Notes: generated by a model not told the origin, from the sequence alone. A stretch of 63,959 nt of DNA, filler included, from Nanobdellota archaeon (GCA_051819665.1; 4 parts of 4 records of this genome joined end to end with filler, not necessarily neighbours in it), one strand, 5' to 3'. Shown: positions 53,128-63,959, counted from the whole stretch's first letter. Program-made: numbers and translations.

Positions 53128-53563
53128 GCTTAAACACGATAAAAATTTCGAGAAAATCTTTCGGGGATTAGAAAAACATGACCTGCCTAAGCAAGGAATT
53201 TTCTTTGACGGGCAGGTATTTGATGCGTATGAGTTCGTTTCCAGGTTAATAAAGAAAGCAAAGAAAGAGATAATCCTGATAGACAATTATGTAGATGAAT
53301 CAGTGCTGACGTTACTTTCAAAAAAGAAGAAGAATGTTAAAGTGATTATATATACAAAAAATATTTCTAAGCAATTGAAATTAGATGAAGAAAAATTCAA
53401 TAAACAATACGGGGGTTTAGAAATCAAATATTTTGACAAATCTCACGATCGATTCTTAAGAATTGACAACCAGTTATACCATTTCGGAGCTTCGCTAAAG
53501 GATCTTGGAAAGAGATGGTTCGCCTTCTCAAAGATAAGTGCGGAAATATTACGATTAGATTGA
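53128..53563 (+). CDS. 5'-partial ORF6N-type protein, C-terminal PLD-like domain (paralog of 54224)
   Basis: Frame open from the contig edge; IDNYVD, HDRF..ID, GASLKDLG motifs. Confidence 0.8.
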
Positions 53564-53659
53564 AAATTCTCACAGGACAGAGGACAAAGCCGGATGAGAT
53601 ATTTAAAGAGAACAATGGCATCACAATATGTGATACCCCACTTAACTCAATAAAAATCT

Positions 53660-53858
53660 ATGATCAATAGTTATGAATTAATATTTGATGAAGTGATAAA
53701 AAAGCAATTGACTTCGGCAGATGCCTCCTATAAGGCTTTATTTCAGGCATCTGATCCATACAGATCAGCTGGAAGTTTTCGAATTTGAGATGAAAACGAA
53801 TCCGGATAAACAGAAGAAGACCATCAATAGACTGAGAAACAAATCATCAAAAACCTAG
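53660..53858 (+). pseudogene. RelE/ParE-like toxin remnant with internal deletion
   Basis: N-terminus MINSYELIFDEVIKKQL and C-terminus PPIRLYF...FEFEMKT...KQKKTI are in different frames and the centre is missing. Confidence 0.55.
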
Positions 53859-53999
53859 ATCTTTCCGGGTATAATTCCCGTTCTTCCTTATATCAGATTC
53901 AAACTCTGCTAACCTCTTATACAGCTTACTATCCCTTAAGGTTCTGATCTCCCTTTTCATGAGTTCATACTTTTCCTTGGGGATGGTTACTTTCTCCAT
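53847..53999 (-). CDS. Small antitoxin-like protein (50 aa, not in ORF track)
   Basis: MEKVTIPKEKYELMKREIRTLRDSKLYKRLAEFESDIRKNGNYTRKDLGF; own TATA upstream; convergent with the toxin remnant. Confidence 0.6.
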   Translation of the reverse strand: MEKVTIPKEKYELMKREIRTLRDSKLYKRLAEFESDIRKNGNYTRKDLGF

Positions 54000-54103
54000 A
54001 ATGTTCAGAAAAGTATTTCTTATATTTAAATTTTCCCAGAAGGATCAAGCCTTTCAAATGAAGATAATTCTAATCTTGAAGTCACAAATTGTGACCGCAT
54101 TTC

Positions 54104-54202
54104 AAAGAGATGGTTCGCTTTCTCAAAGATAAGTCGGAAATATTACAATCAAATTGAAAATTCTCACAAGACAGAGGACATCCTCAGATGAGATATATAA
54201 AG
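54104..54202 (+). repeat. Degenerate third copy of ORF6N 3' end plus downstream promoter
   Basis: AAAGAGATGGTTCGC...GAAAATTCTCACA.GACAGAGGACA...GATGAGATATATAAA, matching ~53509-53608 and ~55000-55098. Confidence 0.85.
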
Positions 54203-54223
54203 AAATGATTCTCTCTTAATATC

Positions 54224-55054
54224 ATGGACATCAAGGATAAGATTCATACGATAAGAGGAAAACAGGTCATGCTTGACAGGGATCTGGCTGAGCTTTATGA
54301 AGTGGAGACAAAATCCTTAAACCAGGCTATAAAGAGGAATAAAGAGAGATTTCCGAACCATTTTTGTTTCCAGTTAAATGAGACCGAGTTCAATCTTTTG
54401 AGGTCACAATTTGTTACCTCAAACAAAAAAAGAGGAGGAAGACGTTACCTGCCTTATGTCTTTACAGAACAGGGGGTTTCTATGCTCTCTGCTGTATTAA
54501 AAAGTAATAAGGCAATAGATATGAGCATAAAAATCATGGATGCTTTTGTGGCTATGCGGAGATTCATATCTGAAAATAAAGACGTATTCTCAAAGTTCCA
54601 GCAGATTGACCAAAAATTGCTTAAACACGATAAAAATTTCGAGAAAATCTTTCGGGGATTAGAAAAACATGACCTGCCTAAGCAAGGAATTTTCTTTGAC
54701 GGGCAGGTATTTGATGCTTATGAGTTCGTCTGTAATCTTATTAGGTCAGCAAAGAAAGAGATAATATTGATTGATAATTATGTTGATGAGTCTGTCCTGA
54801 CGTTACTTTCAAAAAAGAAAAAGGATGTTAAAGTCACGATATACACAAGGAATATCACTAAAAAGCTCAAGCTGGATGCAGACTAATTCAATCAGCAGTA
54901 CAATAATCTAGAGATAAAAGAATTCAACAGATCCCATGACCGTTTCATATTTATTGACAATAAACTTTACCATTTCGGAGCTTCACTAAAGGATCTTGGA
55001 AAGAGATGGTTCGCCTTCTCAAAGATAAGTGCGGAAATATTACGATTAGATTGA
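54224..55054 (+). pseudogene. ORF6N (KilA-N-like) DNA-binding protein with in-frame TAA at 54884 before the PLD-like motifs
   Basis: RGKQVMLDRDLAELY, RFP..F.FQL, YLPYVFTEQG. The frame continues after TAA (FNQQY...HDRF...GASLKDLG) to 55054; the paralog has AAA at this codon. Confidence 0.8.
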
Positions 55055-55120
55055 AAATTCTCACAGGACAGAGGACATGGCCGGATGAGATATATAAATA
55101 AATAATTTCTCTAAAAGTCC

Positions 55121-55567
55121 ATGTATGATATAATACAGACTGATTACTTTGAATCAGAATTCGAAAAAATAATCCCTGATAATCTAAAAGAAAGAGCGAG
55201 AAAGAAGATTGAATCATTAAGAGAAAAACCAAAATCAGGAAAACCACTTTCATATGAATTCCTGAGAGAACTCAAGATAGATAAATACAGGATTTATTAT
55301 ATGGTATATGAAAACATATTGACGATACTTTTAGTTTCCACAGGAGATAAAAAGACACAAAAATTAATGATAGAAGAGATAAAAGAAAAAAGAGAATCGC
55401 TAAAAACGTTTGCTCACAATTACACAAATTATTTAAAGGAAAAAGGTGATCATATGTATATGGATAAAGAAGAAAAAAGGCTTTTGAAAGAGAGGAATGA
55501 GCTTTTAGAAAAGCTTGTAAGGTCTCTTGAAGATGTAAAAGAAGGAAGGCTTAAACCTTTCAAGTGA
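55121..55567 (+). CDS. RelE-like toxin fused in frame to a small antitoxin-like peptide
   Basis: GKPLSYEFLRELKIDKYRIYY...DKKTQ toxin part. The linker DNA holds TTATTTAAA, GGTGA and ATG (55454), followed by ...LVRSLEDVKEGRLKPFK. Confidence 0.65.
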   Translation: MYDIIQTDYFESEFEKIIPDNLKERARKKIESLREKPKSGKPLSYEFLRELKIDKYRIYYMVYENILTILLVSTGDKKTQKLMIEEIKEKRESLKTFAHNYTNYLKEKGDHMYMDKEEKRLLKERNELLEKLVRSLEDVKEGRLKPFK

Positions 55568-55640
55568 AGATAATTCTAATTTTGAAATCGCAAAATGCTA
55601 TACCTATAGAAGAATAGTTTCTTATAAGAAAATCTAGTCT

Positions 55641-55730
55641 ATGTGGTCGCAAATTGCGACCTTAGAAAATAATGACTCAAGAGGAAAACACAGGAAATAT
55701 TTGCCTCATGCATTCACAGAACACTATTTA
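55641..55730 (+). pseudogene. Internal fragment of another ORF6N gene
   Basis: Translates MWSQIATLENNDSRGKHRKYLPHAFTEH, compared with RSQFVTSNKKRGGRRYLPYVFTEQ in the 54224 gene. Confidence 0.7.
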
Positions 55731-55775
55731 GACCCAGAAAAATTTATATATTTATTATATAATATTATATACTAA

Positions 55776-56387
55776 ATGAATAATAAAAAAGACATGATTC
55801 TGGGTTCTCTGATAAGACAACCCCTGGAAAGCAAGAGCATGCGGCAGATATCCATAGATACCGGCCTGACTTACGTAACAGTGCATAAAACAATACCTGA
55901 AATAAAAGGAGAACTTGATATCAAAGAAAAGGGCAAATCAAGACTCATAAGGATAGACCTTGAAAATGCAGAGATGGACTCTTTGAGCTCAGCCGCATTA
56001 TACGAGAAAACCAGATTCCTGAAAAAATATCCAAAGATCAGAATAGTGGTCGATGAGATAATTGAAAACCTCGCCGGAAATCTTTACAGTCTCATTTTAT
56101 TTGGTTCCTCTGTAGACGAGGATCATAGAAAGGATTCCGATATTGACCTTCTTTTCATAGTTCCAGACCGGAATTATTTCAGTGACTTCACCAAAATGAT
56201 TAATAAGGCAATAAGCGTTTCTCCACTCACCGTAGATTTTAAGCTGATAACACCCGAGGATTTCATAGCCATGCTTAATGAAAAGTACAGCATGGGTAGA
56301 GAAGCTTTCGAGAACGGAATGCCAATCTTCGGCAATGAAGCTTATTATTCCATGGTGAAAGATCATGCTGGAAAAAAAGGATATTGA
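55776..56387 (+). CDS. HTH + minimal nucleotidyltransferase (MNT antitoxin-like)
   Basis: LFGS...SDIDLLFI; N-terminal HTH. Confidence 0.85.
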   Translation: MNNKKDMILGSLIRQPLESKSMRQISIDTGLTYVTVHKTIPEIKGELDIKEKGKSRLIRIDLENAEMDSLSSAALYEKTRFLKKYPKIRIVVDEIIENLAGNLYSLILFGSSVDEDHRKDSDIDLLFIVPDRNYFSDFTKMINKAISVSPLTVDFKLITPEDFIAMLNEKYSMGREAFENGMPIFGNEAYYSMVKDHAGKKGY

Positions 56388-56530
56388 AAAGACAAAAGAA
56401 TAAACGCCAGGATTTCACATATCAGATGAATAGATCTGCAAAAATATCCGAAGCAGAAAACAGTATAGAAAAAGCCAAGGAATTCATAGAACTAACAGAA
56501 GAATATAGATTACTGAAACATCATGACTGA
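56365..56530 (+). pseudogene. HEPN toxin remnant with internal deletion
   Basis: Start MLEKKDIEK overlaps the MNT end; the C-terminal helix KRQDFTY...AK..EAENSIEKAKEF follows in another frame; only 166 nt in total. Confidence 0.6.
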
Positions 56531-56537
56531 CTTAACC

Positions 56538-56660
56538 CACATTCCGGTCCTCGCTTAAGGAACTTAAGCCGGAATGTAAGCCCTTTCTGATAATCACTGT
56601 CAAAGTCAGAAAGGAAAGAAAAAGAAACAAAACACTTCTCTCTAAAGTCCGTAATACTCC
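56538..56660. repeat. 123-bp direct repeat, copy 1 (two hairpins + T-tract + last codons of epimerase)
   Basis: 121/123 identical to 57363-57485. Confidence 0.92.
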
Positions 56661-56777
56661 CAACAATGAAGAAAAATTTTATCTTCCTAAAACTCTCAAC
56701 TTGAGGTTCCAGAATGGCACCTCAAGCCTGGAAATCGCAATCTGCGACATCCAATTCAGGCAGAAAGATTTATATAT

Positions 56778-57362
56778 ATGGTTTTAAACCATAATACTAT
56801 GGTTAAAAATGAAAAGATTGAAATCCTGAAAATCTTGATAGCAAATAATTCTAAGAGATTTACAATAAAAGAATTATCCAGAATAAGAAACATCAATTAT
56901 AAATCCGCATATGAAGCAATAGAAAAACTCGGTGAAGTTATTGAAAAAGAAAAAATCGGGAATACAAATCAATGCAGGTTCAATAACAAGTTCAATAAAG
57001 ATGTATTTTTAGCTGAAGAGTCAAGACTTGATGAGCTTCTTAAGATAAAAGGTTTCAAAACTATCAGAAATGAGCTCATGAAAGCAAAATTTCCGTTTAT
57101 AGCGGTAATCTTTGGATCTTACGCAAGAGGAGATTTTGATAAACATTCTGATATAGATCTGCTTCTGATATCAGAACACCCCGATGAGATAGAGAACTTT
57201 GTCAGTTGGGCACCACTTAATCTACACCTAACAAGCATAACCTACGATGAATTCATTGAGATGTTCTCCCGGAAATCTTTCAATGTAGTCAACGAAACAG
57301 TTAAAAACCATATTATCCTGCATAACACCCAGGAATACTATAGGTTGATCAACTCCCTCTAA
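56778..57362 (+). CDS. HTH + minimal nucleotidyltransferase (MNT), no HEPN partner
   Basis: IFGSYARG....SDIDLLLI; palindrome ATGGTTTTAAACCAT over the start. Confidence 0.85.
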   Translation: MVLNHNTMVKNEKIEILKILIANNSKRFTIKELSRIRNINYKSAYEAIEKLGEVIEKEKIGNTNQCRFNNKFNKDVFLAEESRLDELLKIKGFKTIRNELMKAKFPFIAVIFGSYARGDFDKHSDIDLLLISEHPDEIENFVSWAPLNLHLTSITYDEFIEMFSRKSFNVVNETVKNHIILHNTQEYYRLINSL

Positions 57363-57485
57363 CACATTCCGGTCCTCGCTTAAGGAACTTAAGCCGGAAT
57401 GTAAGCCCTTTCTGATAATCACTGTCAAAGTCAGAAAGGAAAGAAAAAGAAACAAAACACTTCTCTCTAAAGCCCGTAATATTCC
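57363..57485. repeat. 123-bp direct repeat, copy 2 (overlaps epimerase 3' end)
   Basis: Near-identical to 56538-56660. Confidence 0.92.
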
Positions 57486-58423
57486 TTATACCAATCAACA
57501 AACTTAGCTACACCTTCCTCTATCGAAACAGAAGGATCATACCCTAATTTCTCCTTACTATGCTCGATATCAGCATAAGTGATAGGAACATCACCAGGCT
57601 GTATCTCCATGAGCTTCTGCTTAGCCTTCAATCCCAATTTATCCTCAATCACAGAGATGAAATATTTCAGTTCTATCGTGTTATTATTGCCGAGATTGAA
57701 GATCTCATAAGCATACTCCTTATCAAGAGATGCCAGAACACCTGAAACGATATCGGTAATATAGGTAAAGTCCCTCTTCATCTTCCCATAATTGTAGACC
57801 TCTATCTCCTTCCCTTCGAGCATATTCTTGACGAACTTGAAGAGAGCCATGTCAGGCCTTCCCCAAGGGCCATAAACGGTAAAAAACCTGAGTCCTGTCA
57901 TATTGATACCATAAAGATGATGATAAGTGTAAGCCATGAGCTCATTGCTCCTCTTCGTCGCTGCATAAAGGCTCACCGGACCTGAAACATCATCCTTCTC
58001 AGAGAAGGGAACTTTCTCATTACCCCCATAGACAGAGGATGAAGAAGCATAGATAACAGTCTTAATATCAAACTCCTTGGCCATCTCAAAAAGCACGACA
58101 GTGCCGTCGATGTTCGACTTAAGATATGCATAAGGATTCTCTAAGCTATAACGAACACCTGCCTGCGCACCCAGATGGCAGATCTTGTCTATCTTATGCT
58201 CCCGGAAGATCTTCCTCATAACATCTGCGTCAGAAAAGTCCTTCCGGTAGAAGGTGAAATCATCAGCGGAATCAAAGAAATGCTTAAGCCTGTCTTCCTT
58301 GAGCTCAGGAGAGTAATAGCCATTCACGCTATCAACGCCAATCACCTCATCTCCTCTGTCAAGCAAGGCCTTTGCTACTGCACTCCCGATAAATCCGGCA
58401 ACGCCGGTGACTAGGATTCTCAT
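57467..58423 (-). CDS. UDP-glucuronate 4-epimerase-like NAD-dependent epimerase
   Basis: GVAGFIG, AQAGVRYS, YAATK, RFFTVYGPWGRPDMA. Confidence 0.92.
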   Translation of the reverse strand: MRILVTGVAGFIGSAVAKALLDRGDEVIGVDSVNGYYSPELKEDRLKHFFDSADDFTFYRKDFSDADVMRKIFREHKIDKICHLGAQAGVRYSLENPYAYLKSNIDGTVVLFEMAKEFDIKTVIYASSSSVYGGNEKVPFSEKDDVSGPVSLYAATKRSNELMAYTYHHLYGINMTGLRFFTVYGPWGRPDMALFKFVKNMLEGKEIEVYNYGKMKRDFTYITDIVSGVLASLDKEYAYEIFNLGNNNTIELKYFISVIEDKLGLKAKQKLMEIQPGDVPITYADIEHSKEKLGYDPSVSIEEGVAKFVDWYKEYYGL

Positions 58424-58625
58424 AGGGAATAAAGTATAAGCTATCATTTATAAATCTAATTAAACTAAATTATTTTCCATATAGAAAAATAATAATGTTG
58501 GTTCTCAATAATGATTATTGGCCACCAACAAAAGTGTTCAGTGAAGTGAACGATTAAGTAAAAAATCGTCTTACAGAGTGAACGATTTAGAAAGATTTAA
58601 ATAGATAGCAACCTCTCCAAACCTT

Positions 58626-59897
58626 ATGGAAGAGAACATAATCTACTGGAACCCATGGTGGAAAGAAAAGTTTGATTTCAACCTTAAACAAAGGGAGATA
58701 TTCAATGAAGTGGATGAGCTTATCGATATAAAAGAAGCTGTTTTTTTCACAGGGATAAGAAGATCAGGAAAGACCTCTGTGATGTATCATATAATAAGCA
58801 GATTATTGAAAAAGGTGCCGGAAGAAAACATATTATACCTTAATCTTGATGATGAAGTCCTGCAATTCAAGAGACTCGAAGACATCCTACAGACGTACAA
58901 GAAGTTGTTTCCAGACATAAAAGGGAAGATATACGTATTCCTTGACGAGATACAGAATATTGATGGATGGGAAAGATGGGTAAAGAATAAGCATGATTCA
59001 TTCGAGGACATAAAATTCTTCATAAGCGGTTCAAAATCTCATATGTTAAAGAAGACATCATCGCTTCTTACAGGGAGGATGGTCGAGATTGAGATCTATC
59101 CCCTCAGCTTCAGAGAGTTTCTTGATTTCAAAGGTTACAGAAGGCTGGAGATACTTTCGGAAAAACACAGGATGAAGAAGGAGTTTGAAGAATACATGAA
59201 ATATGGCGGATTCCCGGAGATTGTTCTTCAGGAAAATGACAGGACAAAGACTCTGCTCCTCAAAGAATATTATGACAGCATCAAGAATAAGGATATATTG
59301 ACATATTTCGATATCAAAGAATCCGGAAAATTTGAGAGAATGTCCCTGTATATGATCACAAACATATCAAGGCAGATGAGTGTCTCAAAGATAGCCAAAA
59401 CTGTTGGGTTAAGCAAATCGATCGCAGAAAAATACCTTGACTATTCCGAGATGATGTATCTTTTCCTGGAGTTGAACCATTATAATTATTCGATAAAGAA
59501 ACAGGTAACCATGCCCAGAAAGATATATACTATAGACACAGGCATATTCAATGCAACATCCTTCCAGTTCTCCTCTAACATCGGAAGATTGCTTGAGAAC
59601 CTCATCTTCGTGGAACTTAAGAGAAACGGGCAGGAGATATATTATTACACAGAAAGGAATGAATGTGACTTCGTGATAAAGGAGGGAAACAATATCGTAG
59701 AAGCGTTGCAGATATGTGCAGAACTGAACGAGGACAATAAAGAGAGGGAGCTCAAGGGCCTTAAAGAGACGATGGAATCATTCGGCGTTAATGGGAAGAT
59801 CATAACCTATGACCAGAAAGAAGAAATAGAAGGAATTGAGGTCATACCCGCAAGAGAATTTCTGCTCAATCAGACCTGCCGACAGAGAGGTAATTGA
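58626..59897 (+). CDS. AAA_14/DUF4143 ATP-binding protein
   Basis: GIRRSGKT, LDEIQ, SGS, GGFPE, KIY.IDTG, ECDF. Confidence 0.88.
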   Translation: MEENIIYWNPWWKEKFDFNLKQREIFNEVDELIDIKEAVFFTGIRRSGKTSVMYHIISRLLKKVPEENILYLNLDDEVLQFKRLEDILQTYKKLFPDIKGKIYVFLDEIQNIDGWERWVKNKHDSFEDIKFFISGSKSHMLKKTSSLLTGRMVEIEIYPLSFREFLDFKGYRRLEILSEKHRMKKEFEEYMKYGGFPEIVLQENDRTKTLLLKEYYDSIKNKDILTYFDIKESGKFERMSLYMITNISRQMSVSKIAKTVGLSKSIAEKYLDYSEMMYLFLELNHYNYSIKKQVTMPRKIYTIDTGIFNATSFQFSSNIGRLLENLIFVELKRNGQEIYYYTERNECDFVIKEGNNIVEALQICAELNEDNKERELKGLKETMESFGVNGKIITYDQKEEIEGIEVIPAREFLLNQTCRQRGN

Positions 59898-62505
59898 AGC
59901 CTTCCATCTCCTCCGGATCATAGATGTTCCTGCCATCAAGGACATTAGGTTTCTTCATGAGCTTCTTCATCCTTTCGAAATCAGGCTGCCTGAACTCGTC
60001 CCATTCGGTGACTATGATAAGAGCATCAGCATCTTTGAGAGCATCGTACTTGTTATCAACCAGCTCTACATCCACACCTGCCTGCTTCACATTATCCATG
60101 GCTTCCGGATCGAAAGCAGAAACCTCGGCGAATTCGTTCTTCAGCTGATCTATGATCACCAGAGAAGGGGCTTCCCTTATATCATCCGTCCTCGGCTTGA
60201 AAGACAGACCCCAGAGAGCTATCTTCTTGCCGTCAAGATCACCGAGCATCTTCTTCAGTTTAGGGACTATGCTCTTCTTCTGCCTCTCGTTAATATAATC
60301 AACAGCCCTGATTATGTTTGAAGTCAGGCCTTCTTTCTCAAGAGACTGCGACAGGGCCCTTACGTCCTTCGGGAAGCAGTTATGCACAAGAATGCCGTGG
60401 CTCGTGAAAAACTTTTCCGTGCCCTCAACCTCTACACTGTATACATCCGTCTCTTCATATCTCTTATTCAACTCACTTATCTCTGTGAAACATGCACCTT
60501 TCTTCCTTGAAAAACCGACGCTCTTTATATCCTTACATCCTTTCAATACATCAGCGACCTTCTTCTGTGTTCTCCTGTCCTTGAAACCTGGAAGTTTCTC
60601 GACCTGTTTTTTTGTGGAAACCCTGAAGAAGTGTGCCGGGCCTGTACTTTTTGTGGAGCGGGAAGTCTTATAGCTCGGCACGATCCCCTCAGACAGGAGC
60701 AGGAGTATGCTCTTATGCACAAGGTCATAGCTTATGCTCCCGAAATCATACACGACCGAGTTCGTATCCTTCGGGAAGGCTACATGTCCGTCCCCCCTGA
60801 AAAGGGCCCTGAGAAAATCCATCTTATACGGTGAATTGAATACCACATCCGGCACATCAGCTGTATATGAATCCCTTCCGCATCCAAGATGATCTTCCAG
60901 AAGATAGGCAAGTATCCTCGACGAGGTGGTTATCGAAGTAGTGTTATTCTCCTTATAGTCAGAGACAGTATAATTTATTTTCAGCCTGTCGTATATCTTC
61001 TTGATATCATCAATGTACTCTTTCTCGTTCATATTAAATGAGACAGTTATCCTTTTCCTTGTCCCTCTCAATCCGCCTTCTGTATTTATGTGGCCTTCAC
61101 TTATATAATAGCCCAATAACCTCATGAAATCAGAATCCAGATCAATAACAGTAGGAACATAAGAGGCTTTGCCCTTGGCAGTGAATAAGAGCATGTTCCC
61201 GCGCGAATAATTTTCTTCTACAGAGAGGAATTCAGTGAGGTTCATGCAATTGCTCCTTACTATATCACCAAGCCGGTCGGCAGAGAAATTGCCTTTCAGT
61301 CTCTCTTTCGTGAATTTTCCCTTCTTAGGTCTGACCTTCACCTTATCAAAATCGAACAGATCCTTATCAAGCATATCTATAAGATCCAGTTTATCAAGAG
61401 ACTCTGTCCTGGGAAATCCCGATAGGGAAGGGAGCTTATCTTTAAGGGTAAGATCCCCGGCTAGCTTTACATTAAAATCATCAACGATCATCGGATGATC
61501 ATCTGTGACCCTGACCGTCTTGTTCATCCTGGTCTTCACTTCAACTATATTGCCCTTAAACTTCCTTCTGGTAAAGTTTTTGACCTTCCTGAACACAGGT
61601 TTTTTCTTACCGGTATCGAAGCTTAATATCTCAATACCTTTTTTATCACCTATGTCCTTTATAGGGACTGGCCTGATCATGCCATCCTCTTTCACGATGA
61701 CTGTCTCCTCACCCTTAAGGCATGAACCACCGTAACCAATGCCTGCCTGTAAAAAGCGAGGACCTATCCTCGGATCCAACCCCATGCCCTTAGACACATG
61801 CTTTATGTCAGCGCCTATCTTCTCACAAAGGTGAGATAGTTCGTTCATGAAGCTTATCCTTGTAGCTAACATTGCATTAGAAGCATACTTGATTAACTCC
61901 GAGCTTTTAACATCAGTGAACATGACAGGCCTGCCTACCCTTGAGACTGACCTGTAGAGCTTCTCCATAAGTGTCTTTGCCTTCTCGGAATCACAACCGA
62001 TGACGACCCTGTCCGGATTTCTGAAATCCTTGATGGCTGCACCTTCCCTCAAAAATTCAGGGTTCGAGACAACGTCAAAATCTGCATCGGGATTCTTCTC
62101 CCTTATCTTCCTCTTCACCTTTTCGGCAGTACCAACGGGGACTGTTGATTTGTCCACGATCACCTTATAGCCGTTTATGTTCTCCGCAATATCCTCCGCA
62201 ACCGAGAAAACATACTTCAGGTCGGCATCACCCTTCTCATCCTGGGGCGTTCCCACACTGATGAAGATTATATCGGATTCCTGGACAGCCTTCTTCTTAT
62301 CATCAGTGAAAGCAAGCCTGTCTTCCTTCAGGTTCCTGTCGACAAGTTCCTTGAGACCGGGCTCATATATGGGGATCTCCCCTTTGCTCAACTTATCCAC
62401 TTTCTCCTTGTCAATATCAAGACAGATGACATCATTGCCCATATCCGCAAAACATGTACCGCTGACCAAACCGACATAACCCGTACCGACCATAGTGATT
62501 TTCAT
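59866..62505 (-). CDS. ugd: UDP-glucose 6-dehydrogenase containing an intein
   Basis: GTGYVG, KSTVPVGT, NPEFLREG, GYGGS|CFPKD split by the intein, FKPRTDDIRE. Confidence 0.95.
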   Translation of the reverse strand: MKITMVGTGYVGLVSGTCFADMGNDVICLDIDKEKVDKLSKGEIPIYEPGLKELVDRNLKEDRLAFTDDKKKAVQESDIIFISVGTPQDEKGDADLKYVFSVAEDIAENINGYKVIVDKSTVPVGTAEKVKRKIREKNPDADFDVVSNPEFLREGAAIKDFRNPDRVVIGCDSEKAKTLMEKLYRSVSRVGRPVMFTDVKSSELIKYASNAMLATRISFMNELSHLCEKIGADIKHVSKGMGLDPRIGPRFLQAGIGYGGSCLKGEETVIVKEDGMIRPVPIKDIGDKKGIEILSFDTGKKKPVFRKVKNFTRRKFKGNIVEVKTRMNKTVRVTDDHPMIVDDFNVKLAGDLTLKDKLPSLSGFPRTESLDKLDLIDMLDKDLFDFDKVKVRPKKGKFTKERLKGNFSADRLGDIVRSNCMNLTEFLSVEENYSRGNMLLFTAKGKASYVPTVIDLDSDFMRLLGYYISEGHINTEGGLRGTRKRITVSFNMNEKEYIDDIKKIYDRLKINYTVSDYKENNTTSITTSSRILAYLLEDHLGCGRDSYTADVPDVVFNSPYKMDFLRALFRGDGHVAFPKDTNSVVYDFGSISYDLVHKSILLLLSEGIVPSYKTSRSTKSTGPAHFFRVSTKKQVEKLPGFKDRRTQKKVADVLKGCKDIKSVGFSRKKGACFTEISELNKRYEETDVYSVEVEGTEKFFTSHGILVHNCFPKDVRALSQSLEKEGLTSNIIRAVDYINERQKKSIVPKLKKMLGDLDGKKIALWGLSFKPRTDDIREAPSLVIIDQLKNEFAEVSAFDPEAMDNVKQAGVDVELVDNKYDALKDADALIIVTEWDEFRQPDFERMKKLMKKPNVLDGRNIYDPEEMEGFNYLSVGRSD
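60379..61722 (-). mobile_element. 448-aa intein with LAGLIDADG homing endonuclease
   Basis: Starts CLKGEET; block B VTDDHP; LLGYYISEG and FLRALFRGDG motifs; ends VHN followed by Cys+1. Confidence 0.93.
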
Positions 62506-62550
62506 TGTAAGCAAGAATGTAAGAAGAATATTTAAAAAGCTTATGAATCT

Positions 62551-63273
62551 TTATTTTACCACAAAGAACGGGTTCTTAAGGCTCTCCTTGTTATACTTCA
62601 AGGGCTTGTTTGTAGAAACATCATAAACTTCCCTGCCGGCTCCCCTGACGACTGCATGAGCCGCCGCCGTATCCCATTCCATAGTAGGACCTAATCTTGG
62701 ATATATGTCTGCAGAGCCTTCGGCGACAGCACATAGTTTCAGTGAACTTCCTCTTGAGATAAGCTCATAGTCAGAGGTGATCTTCTCGATGTATTCCTTT
62801 GTCTCATCGTTGAAATGTGACCTGCTCGCGACAACAACGAAATTATCCCTCTCCTTCCCGAAAGGAAGCTCTTCGCCGTCAAGATAACTCTTCCCATTAT
62901 AAGAATAATACATCTGATCCTTTACAGGAACATAGACTACACCAAAAGTCGGCTCACCATCCTCTATAAGCGCTATGTTCACAGTGAACTCGCCGTTCCT
63001 CTTGATGAACTCTTTCGTACCGTCCAGAGGATCAATGAGCCAGAACTTATCCCAGCCCTTACGTTCCTCATGATCGACCTCTTTGGTCTCTTCAGAAAGT
63101 ATAGGATGGTCAGAGATCTTCTTCAGTCCGTCCACGATGACCTCATTTGAGGCCAAGTCTGCTTCAGTGAGAGGGCTCTTATCATCCTTGTACTCTGTTT
63201 CAAAATCCTTATTGTATATCTCAAGGGTCTTCTCTCCCGCTTTCCTGGCAATATCTTTTATGTCTTCTATCAT
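62551..63273 (-). CDS. cysQ: 3'(2'),5'-bisphosphate nucleotidase
   Basis: SPLTEAD, SEE, IDPLDGTKEF, GSSLK, EWDTAA. Confidence 0.93.
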   Translation of the reverse strand: MIEDIKDIARKAGEKTLEIYNKDFETEYKDDKSPLTEADLASNEVIVDGLKKISDHPILSEETKEVDHEERKGWDKFWLIDPLDGTKEFIKRNGEFTVNIALIEDGEPTFGVVYVPVKDQMYYSYNGKSYLDGEELPFGKERDNFVVVASRSHFNDETKEYIEKITSDYELISRGSSLKLCAVAEGSADIYPRLGPTMEWDTAAAHAVVRGAGREVYDVSTNKPLKYNKESLKNPFFVVK

Positions 63274-63298
63274 GATTCTCTTTAACTTCCGCAGAGGT

Positions 63299-63535
63299 TT
63301 ATATATTTAACCCCTGGTTCTTTGTAACCGAACCTCTTTTCGTAATCATCATGAAGCTCTTAGGGATCAATCTTTTTGGAATTTGTATTCCACAAAACGC
63401 ATTCTTTTCGATATTATCAAAGGCCTTGTTTATCGATTTGAAAAGCTCTCTTTCAGACTTATCACCTTGTTCAAGCTTATAGAACGCTTCCAGAATATCC
63501 TGATCCGCAAATCTTATGTTTGAAGGAAGTTTCAT
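63299..63535 (-). pseudogene. RelE-like toxin with internal deletion
   Basis: N-terminal half ends at GIQIPKRLIPK; a typical C-terminus HDDYEKRFGY follows at once in another frame. Confidence 0.55.
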
Positions 63536-63822
63536 TTGTGCCTACCGAGTTCTTTATCATCATAATATCTTTTAGCCATTTCGGGATAATATATCCATCC
63601 GACCTTCCCTTCCGAATCAATAGATACCTTTCCTGAATATATCAGATATTCAATTATCACATTAAATGTCTGATACATCATCTTCTTGGGCAAAGACCCC
63701 CAAAGTTTACGTTTCCTGAACTCCCCGTCATGCTCTCTTATGTGGTCCTCAACCATCAACACTGTATCAAGACGGGGGAACCTCAAGATACTTTTTCCGG
63801 CCATGAAATCAGTGGTCACCAT
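63532..63822 (-). CDS. Small winged-helix protein, antitoxin-like partner
   Basis: PRLDTVLMVE...LPKKMMYQTF..I..YL..SGK; ATGA-coupled to the toxin remnant. Confidence 0.65.
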   Translation of the reverse strand: MVTTDFMAGKSILRFPRLDTVLMVEDHIREHDGEFRKRKLWGSLPKKMMYQTFNVIIEYLIYSGKVSIDSEGKVGWIYYPEMAKRYYDDKELGRHK

Positions 63823-63959
63823 GTTATATCATCGGATATAATAAGAGTATTTAAGATTTACGTATCATAAACCCTAAGATACCCCCTTAGAGGTATAGAG
63901 TTGATTACATTATTCTTAAGTTCTCCTGACAAATTCTCGAAATTTTCAGTGAAAAAAAT

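Follow-up and report, generated by a model that had tools for sequence, protein, structure and literature searches.

Why should one short palindrome recur seven times along a run of small toxin-antitoxin (TA) and minimal nucleotidyltransferase (MNT) genes in an archaeal genome, once inside a gene and six times outside? The question arises from a stretch of Nanobdellota archaeon DNA (GCA_051819665.1), here called the window, in which four contigs of a 1.12-Mb, 96% complete genome are joined over 63,959 nucleotides (nt), filler included. All seven palindromes lie on contig C34 (window 53128-63959). A first-pass annotation had taken them for site-specific recombination sites embedded in an ORF6N gene, forming an integron-like array, and had named operators bound by ORF6N as the alternative. 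The palindrome is likely to be the predicted binding site of the ORF6N protein itself. Its loose copies are best read, with some reserve, as relics of ORF6N gene turnover, at which short-homology repair would shuffle the neighbouring TA modules.

The seven 25-mers are all present with the positions and letters originally given. These are sites 1 (53615-53639), 2 (54076-54100), 3 (54398-54422, inside the gene ORF6N-B), 4 (55582-55606) and 5 (55641-55665), and sites 6 and 7, 28 nt apart, which together span 56701-56753. They pair at 8, 9, 11, 7, 9, 10 and 9 of 12 positions, respectively, and at least nine pairs are reached at only 0.05% of genome positions. Each site is a single 25-base-pair (bp) arm pair around a centre of 1-3 nt, with a single base as its centre of symmetry. 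Sites 1 to 3 are of the TCACA type, sites 4, 5 and 7 of the TCGCA type and site 6 of the TTCCA/TGCCA type, and the compensatory change between TCACA/TGTGA and TCGCA/TGCGA is real. The accompanying claim that all copies translate to xxSQxxTS-like peptides is only loosely true: site 6 gives LRFQNGTS, and the peptides of sites 1 and 4 finish with IP.

The whole genome was scanned with a matrix derived from 69 distinct sites in ORF6N genes of other organisms, and ten matches exceeded the threshold of 8 bits. Ranks 1 to 6 are held by sites 3, 2, 7, 5, 6 and 4, and site 1, the weakest copy (11.4 bits), holds rank 8. In leave-one-out scans, five of the sites were equalled by at most seven genome positions, training sites included, site 6 by 13 and site 1 by 20. 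The sites are thus not scattered at random over the genome. A genome-wide regulon was rejected, there being no further strong site elsewhere in the genome, and so was the palindrome as an RNA family, for which Rfam gave two chance matches only, below the gathering score.

The palindrome as part of the ORF6N gene

The palindrome lies in frame at the same position in 90 of 95 ORF6N genes, with tandem copies in 23; gene counts here and below take in related lineages and should not be read as independent events. Four of the five genes missed by this in-frame test hold the palindrome in a shifted reading frame, and therefore the DNA, not the peptide, is conserved. Across 186 sites, pairing stands at 10.39 pairs and falls to 5.44 when codons are exchanged for synonymous ones (highest value 5.77 over 300 trials), so that palindromicity is not accounted for by the protein sequence. 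The palindrome as a by-product of the peptide was rejected on both grounds.

The inner bases of the palindrome covary with one residue of the protein. Among 170 single-site genes, E at this residue goes with TCGCA (36 of 37 on both arms), Q with TCACA (106 of 114) and R, K or L with T(T/G/A)CCA (13 of 19), and cross-type cases number zero. All 38 multi-site genes retain a matching site, and 17 additionally hold non-matching ones. The covarying residue falls within a predicted helix, residues 37-46, the second of a helix-turn-helix (HTH)-like pair, in a structure model with a mean predicted local distance difference test (pLDDT) score of 85; the site itself encodes the end of the helix and a low-confidence loop. 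The arrangement is that of an operator, a dyad whose inner bases track a predicted recognition-helix residue. Because it is conserved at the DNA level and its inner bases follow that residue, the palindrome is likely to be ORF6N's own site, and the intragenic copy may serve in autoregulation. The earlier alternative of an ORF6N-bound site thus gives the better account of the palindrome itself, through this covariation; its extension to the loose copies is taken up below.

In the window the intragenic copy, site 3, belongs to ORF6N-B (54224-55051, plus strand), which consists of an ORF6N domain (Pfam PF10543, 123.9 bits against a cut-off of 27.8, E = 3e-36), a long helix and a C-terminal domain with a phospholipase D (PLD) fold, and which matches the PADLOC profile PDC-S05 with E = 2e-124. 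Its helix is of the NQA class (Q class), which site 3 fits and which matches sites 1 to 3 only. The closest ORF6N relatives come from Woesearchaeota and Nanoarchaeota bins, so that the source is likely to be a DPANN archaeon with a small genome. By the PDC-S05 profile, ORF6N genes are a candidate anti-virus family. In one study, a PDC-S05 member protected E. coli against phages; the member assayed carried a RhuM domain and may not be an ORF6N protein (10.1101/2024.09.26.614923).

An exact 17-letter pattern of the palindrome occurs in 34 of 301 genomes of the order, compared with nine for a reversed control, and in 32 of 401 genomes of the class, and the matches inspected lie mostly inside ORF6N genes. 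An extra site immediately after the start codon, upstream of the ORF6N domain, was seen at L124:4953, L128:1949, L129:645, L135:635 and L219:5103, and sites seem to gather at gene starts. At L033:1290, L055:1329 and L294:2399, a different palindrome with a GTGACA-N3-TGTCAC core is placed close to or at the beginning of neighbouring small genes judged BRO-N-like by eye; the design of a gene holding its own site may occur in this other DNA-binding family.

Loose copies and the joints between modules

Outside genes, 59 sites were found in 1.66 Mb of loci, as against one in shuffled loci. In 1.4 Mb of flanking DNA with genes masked, the gene segment that holds the palindrome gave 58 matches and other segments of the gene (sensitivity at least 0.9) between 1 and 16; the site is therefore what remains when the gene is lost. 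Decay has gone further in loose sites, with 9.56 pairs, than in intragenic ones, with 10.58 (p = 2e-6), and the loose sites match the local helix in 25 of 55 cases, compared with 22.9 by permutation (P = 0.31; three of seven in the window). Decay and the lack of a helix match above chance argue against a regulon, and on this point the ORF6N-bound alternative finds no support: the loose copies do not act like a regulon of the resident protein. The six loose copies in the window are likely to be what is left of ORF6N genes that formerly stood at this defence locus.

These six copies had been placed at module borders. Their location is as claimed, but only four borders are marked, since sites 4 and 5 and sites 6 and 7 form pairs, and the borders between ORF6N-B and the toxin gene RelE-2 and between MNT-2 and an epimerase gene have no site. 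Sites 2 and 4 do stand behind the same antitoxin 3' end, with a left flank of 37 nt in common (the last part of an antitoxin-like gene and the spacer behind it); their right flanks share nothing. Site 5 leads, as noted before, into an ORF6N-like peptide. The 28-nt spacing of sites 6 and 7 resembles the 27-42 nt between tandem sites within ORF6N genes. The central seven bp fall into five types among the seven sites, inversions being counted as the same, and the one type that recurs belongs to sites 2, 3 and 5, in inverted form at site 3.

Site-bordered MNT/HEPN, RelE or Fic modules are present in four other genomes (G222, G560, G024 and G435). G222, from another family, is a near twin of the window, with an intact ORF6N gene, PIN/RHH genes, four MNT modules and eight loose sites, and its array likewise closes on an epimerase gene resembling the one here. 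A search for the G222 epimerase was negative in five of five genomes of one batch and four of five of another, and the two epimerase loci fetched, in G306 and G001, have no array alongside. In G435, five sites surround a Fic-HTH pair and ORF6N relics (L257, contig C2); the genes of this contig look bacterial though the bin is archaeal, a possible contamination. At L246:5135-5263, four tandem sites 30-40 nt apart form a bare site array with no ORF6N gene within 2 kb. A RhuM-family gene (L244:3844-4875) lies directly ahead of the site that opens the G560 cassette, a place that an ORF6N gene might have been expected to fill.

In the window, 4 of 12 ends of repeat blocks fall within 6 nt of a site, as do 5.7% of all positions (p = 0.004; the ends are not independent). 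Shared flanks are one-sided in 15 of 16 site pairs from 11 hand-picked loci. In G560, 56 nt are in common to the right of two sites bracketing an MNT-HEPN module; in G024, 53 nt beside sites bracketing RelE; and in G435, 52 nt beside sites bracketing the Fic-HTH pair. The two flanks of one G222 site are shared with different partners, the left with one site and the right with a second. The outer arms fall into three lineage classes, and cross-class hybrids, among them site 4 of the window, account for 11 of the 64 loose sites that could be classified and for 0 of 275 sites within genes; a share of 39% would be expected if all loose sites were random junctions. A strict rule, under which both arms had to be common, gave no enrichment of hybrids (4 of 57 versus 11 of 189), and the class-based test was made after it, on seeing cases that the strict rule missed. 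Hybrid sites and homology blocks that end at sites make it likely that crossovers inside the palindrome occur, as the first-pass annotation had guessed. The loose copies at module borders in four other genomes, the one-sided shared flanks and the cross-lineage hybrid sites are new.

Tandem ORF6N paralogues have near-identical C-terminal halves and a different helix-plus-site unit. At L002, L197 and L042, for instance, the 3' parts of such paralogues are 91-99% identical and the 5' parts differ, suggesting gene conversion or a swap of the helix-plus-site unit. Three RNA runs of one study contain 11-21% of sampled words; coverage is sparse, with eight short pieces over the upstream part of the array and no joints listed.

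We give slightly better than even odds to an account in which loose sites are relics of ORF6N gene turnover, and crossovers in their shared core, made by short-homology repair, shuffle the neighbouring TA modules. ORF6N genes would arrive repeatedly at a defence hot spot, and helix and matching site would travel as one unit when these genes recombine. The core of 15-17 bp common to all copies would offer a ready short homology, and the palindrome or its bound protein would be a likely break point, as general knowledge of repair suggests. Crossovers would probably be made by ordinary short-homology repair, not by a dedicated recombinase. An in-site crossover between lineages could put the coding sequence out of frame, inactivate the gene and leave behind a hybrid scar with homology to offer for the next event; through scars and other short repeats, modules could in this way be inserted, duplicated or lost. 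What we infer here is binding and autoregulation, the course of the turnover and the agent of the break. Such a mechanism would give small-genome archaea, and likely bacteria too, a route to stack TA and defence modules without integrons or transposases, one in which the predicted site of a mobile DNA-binding gene would outlive the gene and become a joint. The predicted helix-to-DNA code, with one residue and three site types, is simple and testable, and concerns a large unstudied candidate defence family.

Several observations weigh against this account. The 16 site pairs come from 11 hand-picked loci, and trimmed relics would give one-sided sharing too. The arm classes were set from intragenic sites, 24 of the 88 loose sites are unclassified, and a single duplicated event accounts for two of the 11 hybrids. 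ORF6N-like flanks are short: just 28 of 60 loose sites exceed the 95% null on at least one side, and three on both, in a score with a best-of-two-strands bias, and five of the six window copies failed this test. Among 49 mosaic breakpoints in intact ORF6N genes (28 without the 21 in the last two bins, mostly from one short gene), none falls in the codon bins of the site, 60-79. MNT-2 lies between two copies of a 123-bp repeat that has no site of its own, and sites 6 and 7 stand 41 nt inwards from the first copy; the RelE-2 orthologue of G001 is free of sites, homology ending 11 nt before site 4; and a clear site is present at only 1 of 58 homologous module loci. Passive repair, moreover, does not fully explain why the palindrome outlasts the gene, and junction formation covers part of this only.

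Other accounts of the loose sites

An unlikely alternative is that continued binding preserves the loose copies, which would serve as operators of the module promoters or would tie up a toxic ORF6N-PLD protein as a DNA sink; deletions or replacements would then survive only if they left the site intact. A TATA-like box stands 8 nt before site 1, promoter-like boxes precede several G222 sites by about 20 nt, and four of the seven loose G222 sites compared match its intact ORF6N and are well paired. The over-representation of the palindrome among relics and the persistence of non-matching sites in tandem inside genes point the same way, as would the phage protection conferred by a PDC-S05 member, with the reservation about its RhuM domain made above. 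Against this, matching loose sites are not enriched, and their pairing exceeds that of other loose sites in a weak trend only (10.1 versus 9.4, p = 0.10). In the window, sites 1 to 3 alone match ORF6N-B, which is itself broken, and the helix of the second ORF6N gene, ORF6N-A, is not assembled; the genome's other MNT gene and the rest of the genome have no site.

More improbable in our estimate is that ORF6N-PLD makes the joints, with dimers at two sites cutting via a histidine-DNA intermediate and exchanging strands or leaving the ends to host repair. The C-terminal domain has a PLD fold, as seen from Foldseek matches of the structure model to PLD1/2, NucT, FAM83 and TrmBL2 (E = 2e-6 to 1e-3). 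HDR[FY], and with it the domain, is found in 148 of 210 ORF6N genes, and GASxKD is invariant in 81 aligned ORF6N proteins, an alignment in which the invariance of HDRF arises by construction, the genes having been chosen for the motif. Hybrid sites and sharp one-sided ends of homology would be expected products. The motif, however, reads HDRFxxID, as against the catalytic HxKxxxxD of the PLD superfamily, in which HxK and not HxR is usual. A precedent for the chemistry is supplied by BfiI (PMC2475615), but the closest match of the fold is to TrmBL2, a protein of chromatin. The same site is carried by short ORF6N genes that lack the PLD-fold domain, and partner sites are often of unlike helix class, as are sites 2 and 4 of the window. 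The 12-16 kb of sequence retrieved around the site-bordered modules of G560 and G024 contain no ORF6N gene, and breakpoints in intact genes do not peak at the site. The fullest version is more doubtful again: ORF6N-PLD would be a self-targeting cut-and-join enzyme with a new recombinase chemistry (histidine intermediate, PLD fold), its gene would encode both helix and matching site, and its variants would capture defence modules at older sites, giving arrays without an integron. Were the PLD reading true, the array would have been built by a resident enzyme earlier taken for cargo; the domain is a candidate enzyme that recombinase searches would overlook.

There remains a true integron-like array, in the form of a cluster of attC sites lacking an integron-integrase (CALIN), or an Xer-type cassette array, moved by the genome's tyrosine or serine recombinase. 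Site-bordered TA modules in several genomes would fit it, and archaeal integrons, which exist also in Nanoarchaeota, often carry TA genes; their attC site is a strand that folds through two pairs of boxes, R and L, each pair inverted (Ghaly et al., 10.1101/2022.02.06.479319). The present sites, judged without an attC covariance model, show one 25-bp arm pair only and no pair of R and L boxes. The single match over cut-off to PF00589 in the genome lies on contig C32, beside ribosomal protein genes; its best profile is archaeal XerA, at 219.2 bits (cut-off 220), and the profile of IntI, a tyrosine recombinase marked by a specific additional domain, gives 189 bits (cut-off 265), in two stretches. 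Integron cassettes are promoterless and each is closed by one site. The array here has TATA-like boxes at 53599 and 54193, a promoter block common to the site-free G001 orthologue, two borders without a site and two with paired sites. Partner sites of the Xer/lox type have an identical spacer of 6-8 bp, for which the five centre types leave no room. Serine recombinases come with a resolvase or invertase gene and a 2-bp central crossover; the symmetry centre here is a single base, and the genome has no match to serine resolvase (PF00239). Sites as obligatory cassette ends were also rejected: a clear ORF6N-type site is present at 0 of 29 MNT-2 and 1 of 29 RelE-2 homologue loci, and of two MNT-2 homologue loci that were flagged, one has 6 of 12 pairs and one a palindrome of another type. 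With a XerA-like enzyme as the one tyrosine recombinase over the cut-off, modules that have their own promoters, sites that follow the ORF6N helix, homologous modules without sites and a site-free 123-bp repeat, the integron-like array run by a dedicated recombinase that was first proposed is very improbable.

The array, its neighbours and known systems

The array begins at the start of contig C34, so that the true array may extend further. Features are on the plus strand unless stated, and the palindromes are given no strand. The 5' part opens with the 3' half of ORF6N-A (53128-53563; PDC-S05, E = 1e-58), which has its PLD-fold domain with HDRF and GASLKD motifs intact and is 84.6% identical to ORF6N-B. 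The first copy of repeat F (53509-53609), an ORF6N 3' end plus promoter with the TATA-like box at 53599, stops 6 nt short of site 1. A broken small gene that looks RelE-like by eye only (53660-53858, with no Pfam match) and a minus-strand open reading frame (ORF) of 50 amino acids, antitoxin-like from its size and context (53847-53999, with no family match), precede the first copy of repeat E (54039-54075), the antitoxin-like 3' end and spacer that adjoin site 2.

In the middle part, an ORF6N 3'-end relic is joined 4 nt beyond site 2 and, with its promoter (TATA-like box at 54193), forms the second copy of repeat F (54104-54219). ORF6N-B follows, interrupted by a TAA at codon 221 (54884-54886), upstream of its HDRF motif. 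The third copy of repeat F (55000-55115) comprises the 3' end of ORF6N-B and the RelE-2 promoter, the latter common to the G001 orthologue. RelE-2 (55121-55567; PF05016, E = 2e-8) is a RelE/ParE toxin gene read through into a small partner with a second start at 55454; in G001:C50, where the orthologue is 70.6% identical and has no site at all, these are two separate genes. The second copy of repeat E (55545-55581), within and behind the RelE-2 pair, adjoins site 4, a decayed hybrid of two outer-arm classes by the arm-class test. Site 5 and the ORF6N coding relic behind it occupy 55641-55730.

The 3' part starts with MNT-1 (55776-56387; PF01909, E = 3e-9; PDC-M05A, E = 2e-8), which has an N-terminal extension, and a short ORF without family match at the position of a HEPN partner (56384-56530), probably a remnant. 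The first copy of the 123-bp direct repeat (56538-56660), which includes the last 19 nt of the epimerase gene, is 98% identical to the second (57363-57485). Between them lie sites 6 and 7 and MNT-2 (56778-57362; PF01909, E = 2e-9; PDC-M05A, E = 2e-11), which has no HEPN partner. The second copy overlaps the 3' end of the minus-strand gene for an NAD-dependent epimerase (57467-58447). The 123-bp repeat holds two internal inverted repeats and has no third copy in the genome. The nonsense codon of ORF6N-B, the second ORF6N gene cut at the contig start and the two site-free repeat families had been overlooked in the first-pass annotation.

Some 1.1 kb past the array, an ATPase gene with AAA_14 and DUF4143 domains (58626-59897; PADLOC PDC-S01, E = 1e-109) is a further candidate defence gene. 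It is followed by a UDP-glucose dehydrogenase-like gene of 882 amino acids (59866-62514) with an apparent intein, recognised by eye from its Cys start and His-Asn end before Cys. A second gene pair of toxin-antitoxin size, without family match, lies near the contig end (63299-63822).

Among known systems, the nearest is the ORF6N (PF10543)/PDC-S05 family itself, to which ORF6N-A and ORF6N-B belong by strong profile matches; the titles and opening lines of abstracts searched mention no intragenic palindrome, helix-to-site code or PLD-fold partner for it, and none of them concerns the present palindrome. BfiI-type PLD restriction enzymes (PMC2475615) and TrmBL2 (PDB 5bpd) likewise join a DNA-reading domain to a PLD-fold domain, whereas ORF6N has an HxR motif, no methylase partner was seen, any catalysis is putative, and the gene holds its own site. 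Integrons and CALINs resemble the present locus as arrays of small TA and defence modules, many of them separated by a repeat able to form a hairpin; they differ in that this locus has no attC boxes and no IntI, its modules have their own promoters, some borders are site-free, and the repeat codes for part of a DNA-binding gene. A binder's site within its own gene or operon is familiar from parS in parB/spo0J, the lambda O iterons and lac O2. Here, unlike in those cases, site and helix covary family-wide, genes gather foreign sites in tandem and in frame, and the site probably persists as a junction scar after the gene has gone. Finally, defence hot spots bordered by repeats are exchanged by homologous recombination, and in the present array, too, short direct repeats of 37-123 bp flank variable modules; what sets it apart is that many of these repeats start or end at one family of palindromes with a predicted binding protein.

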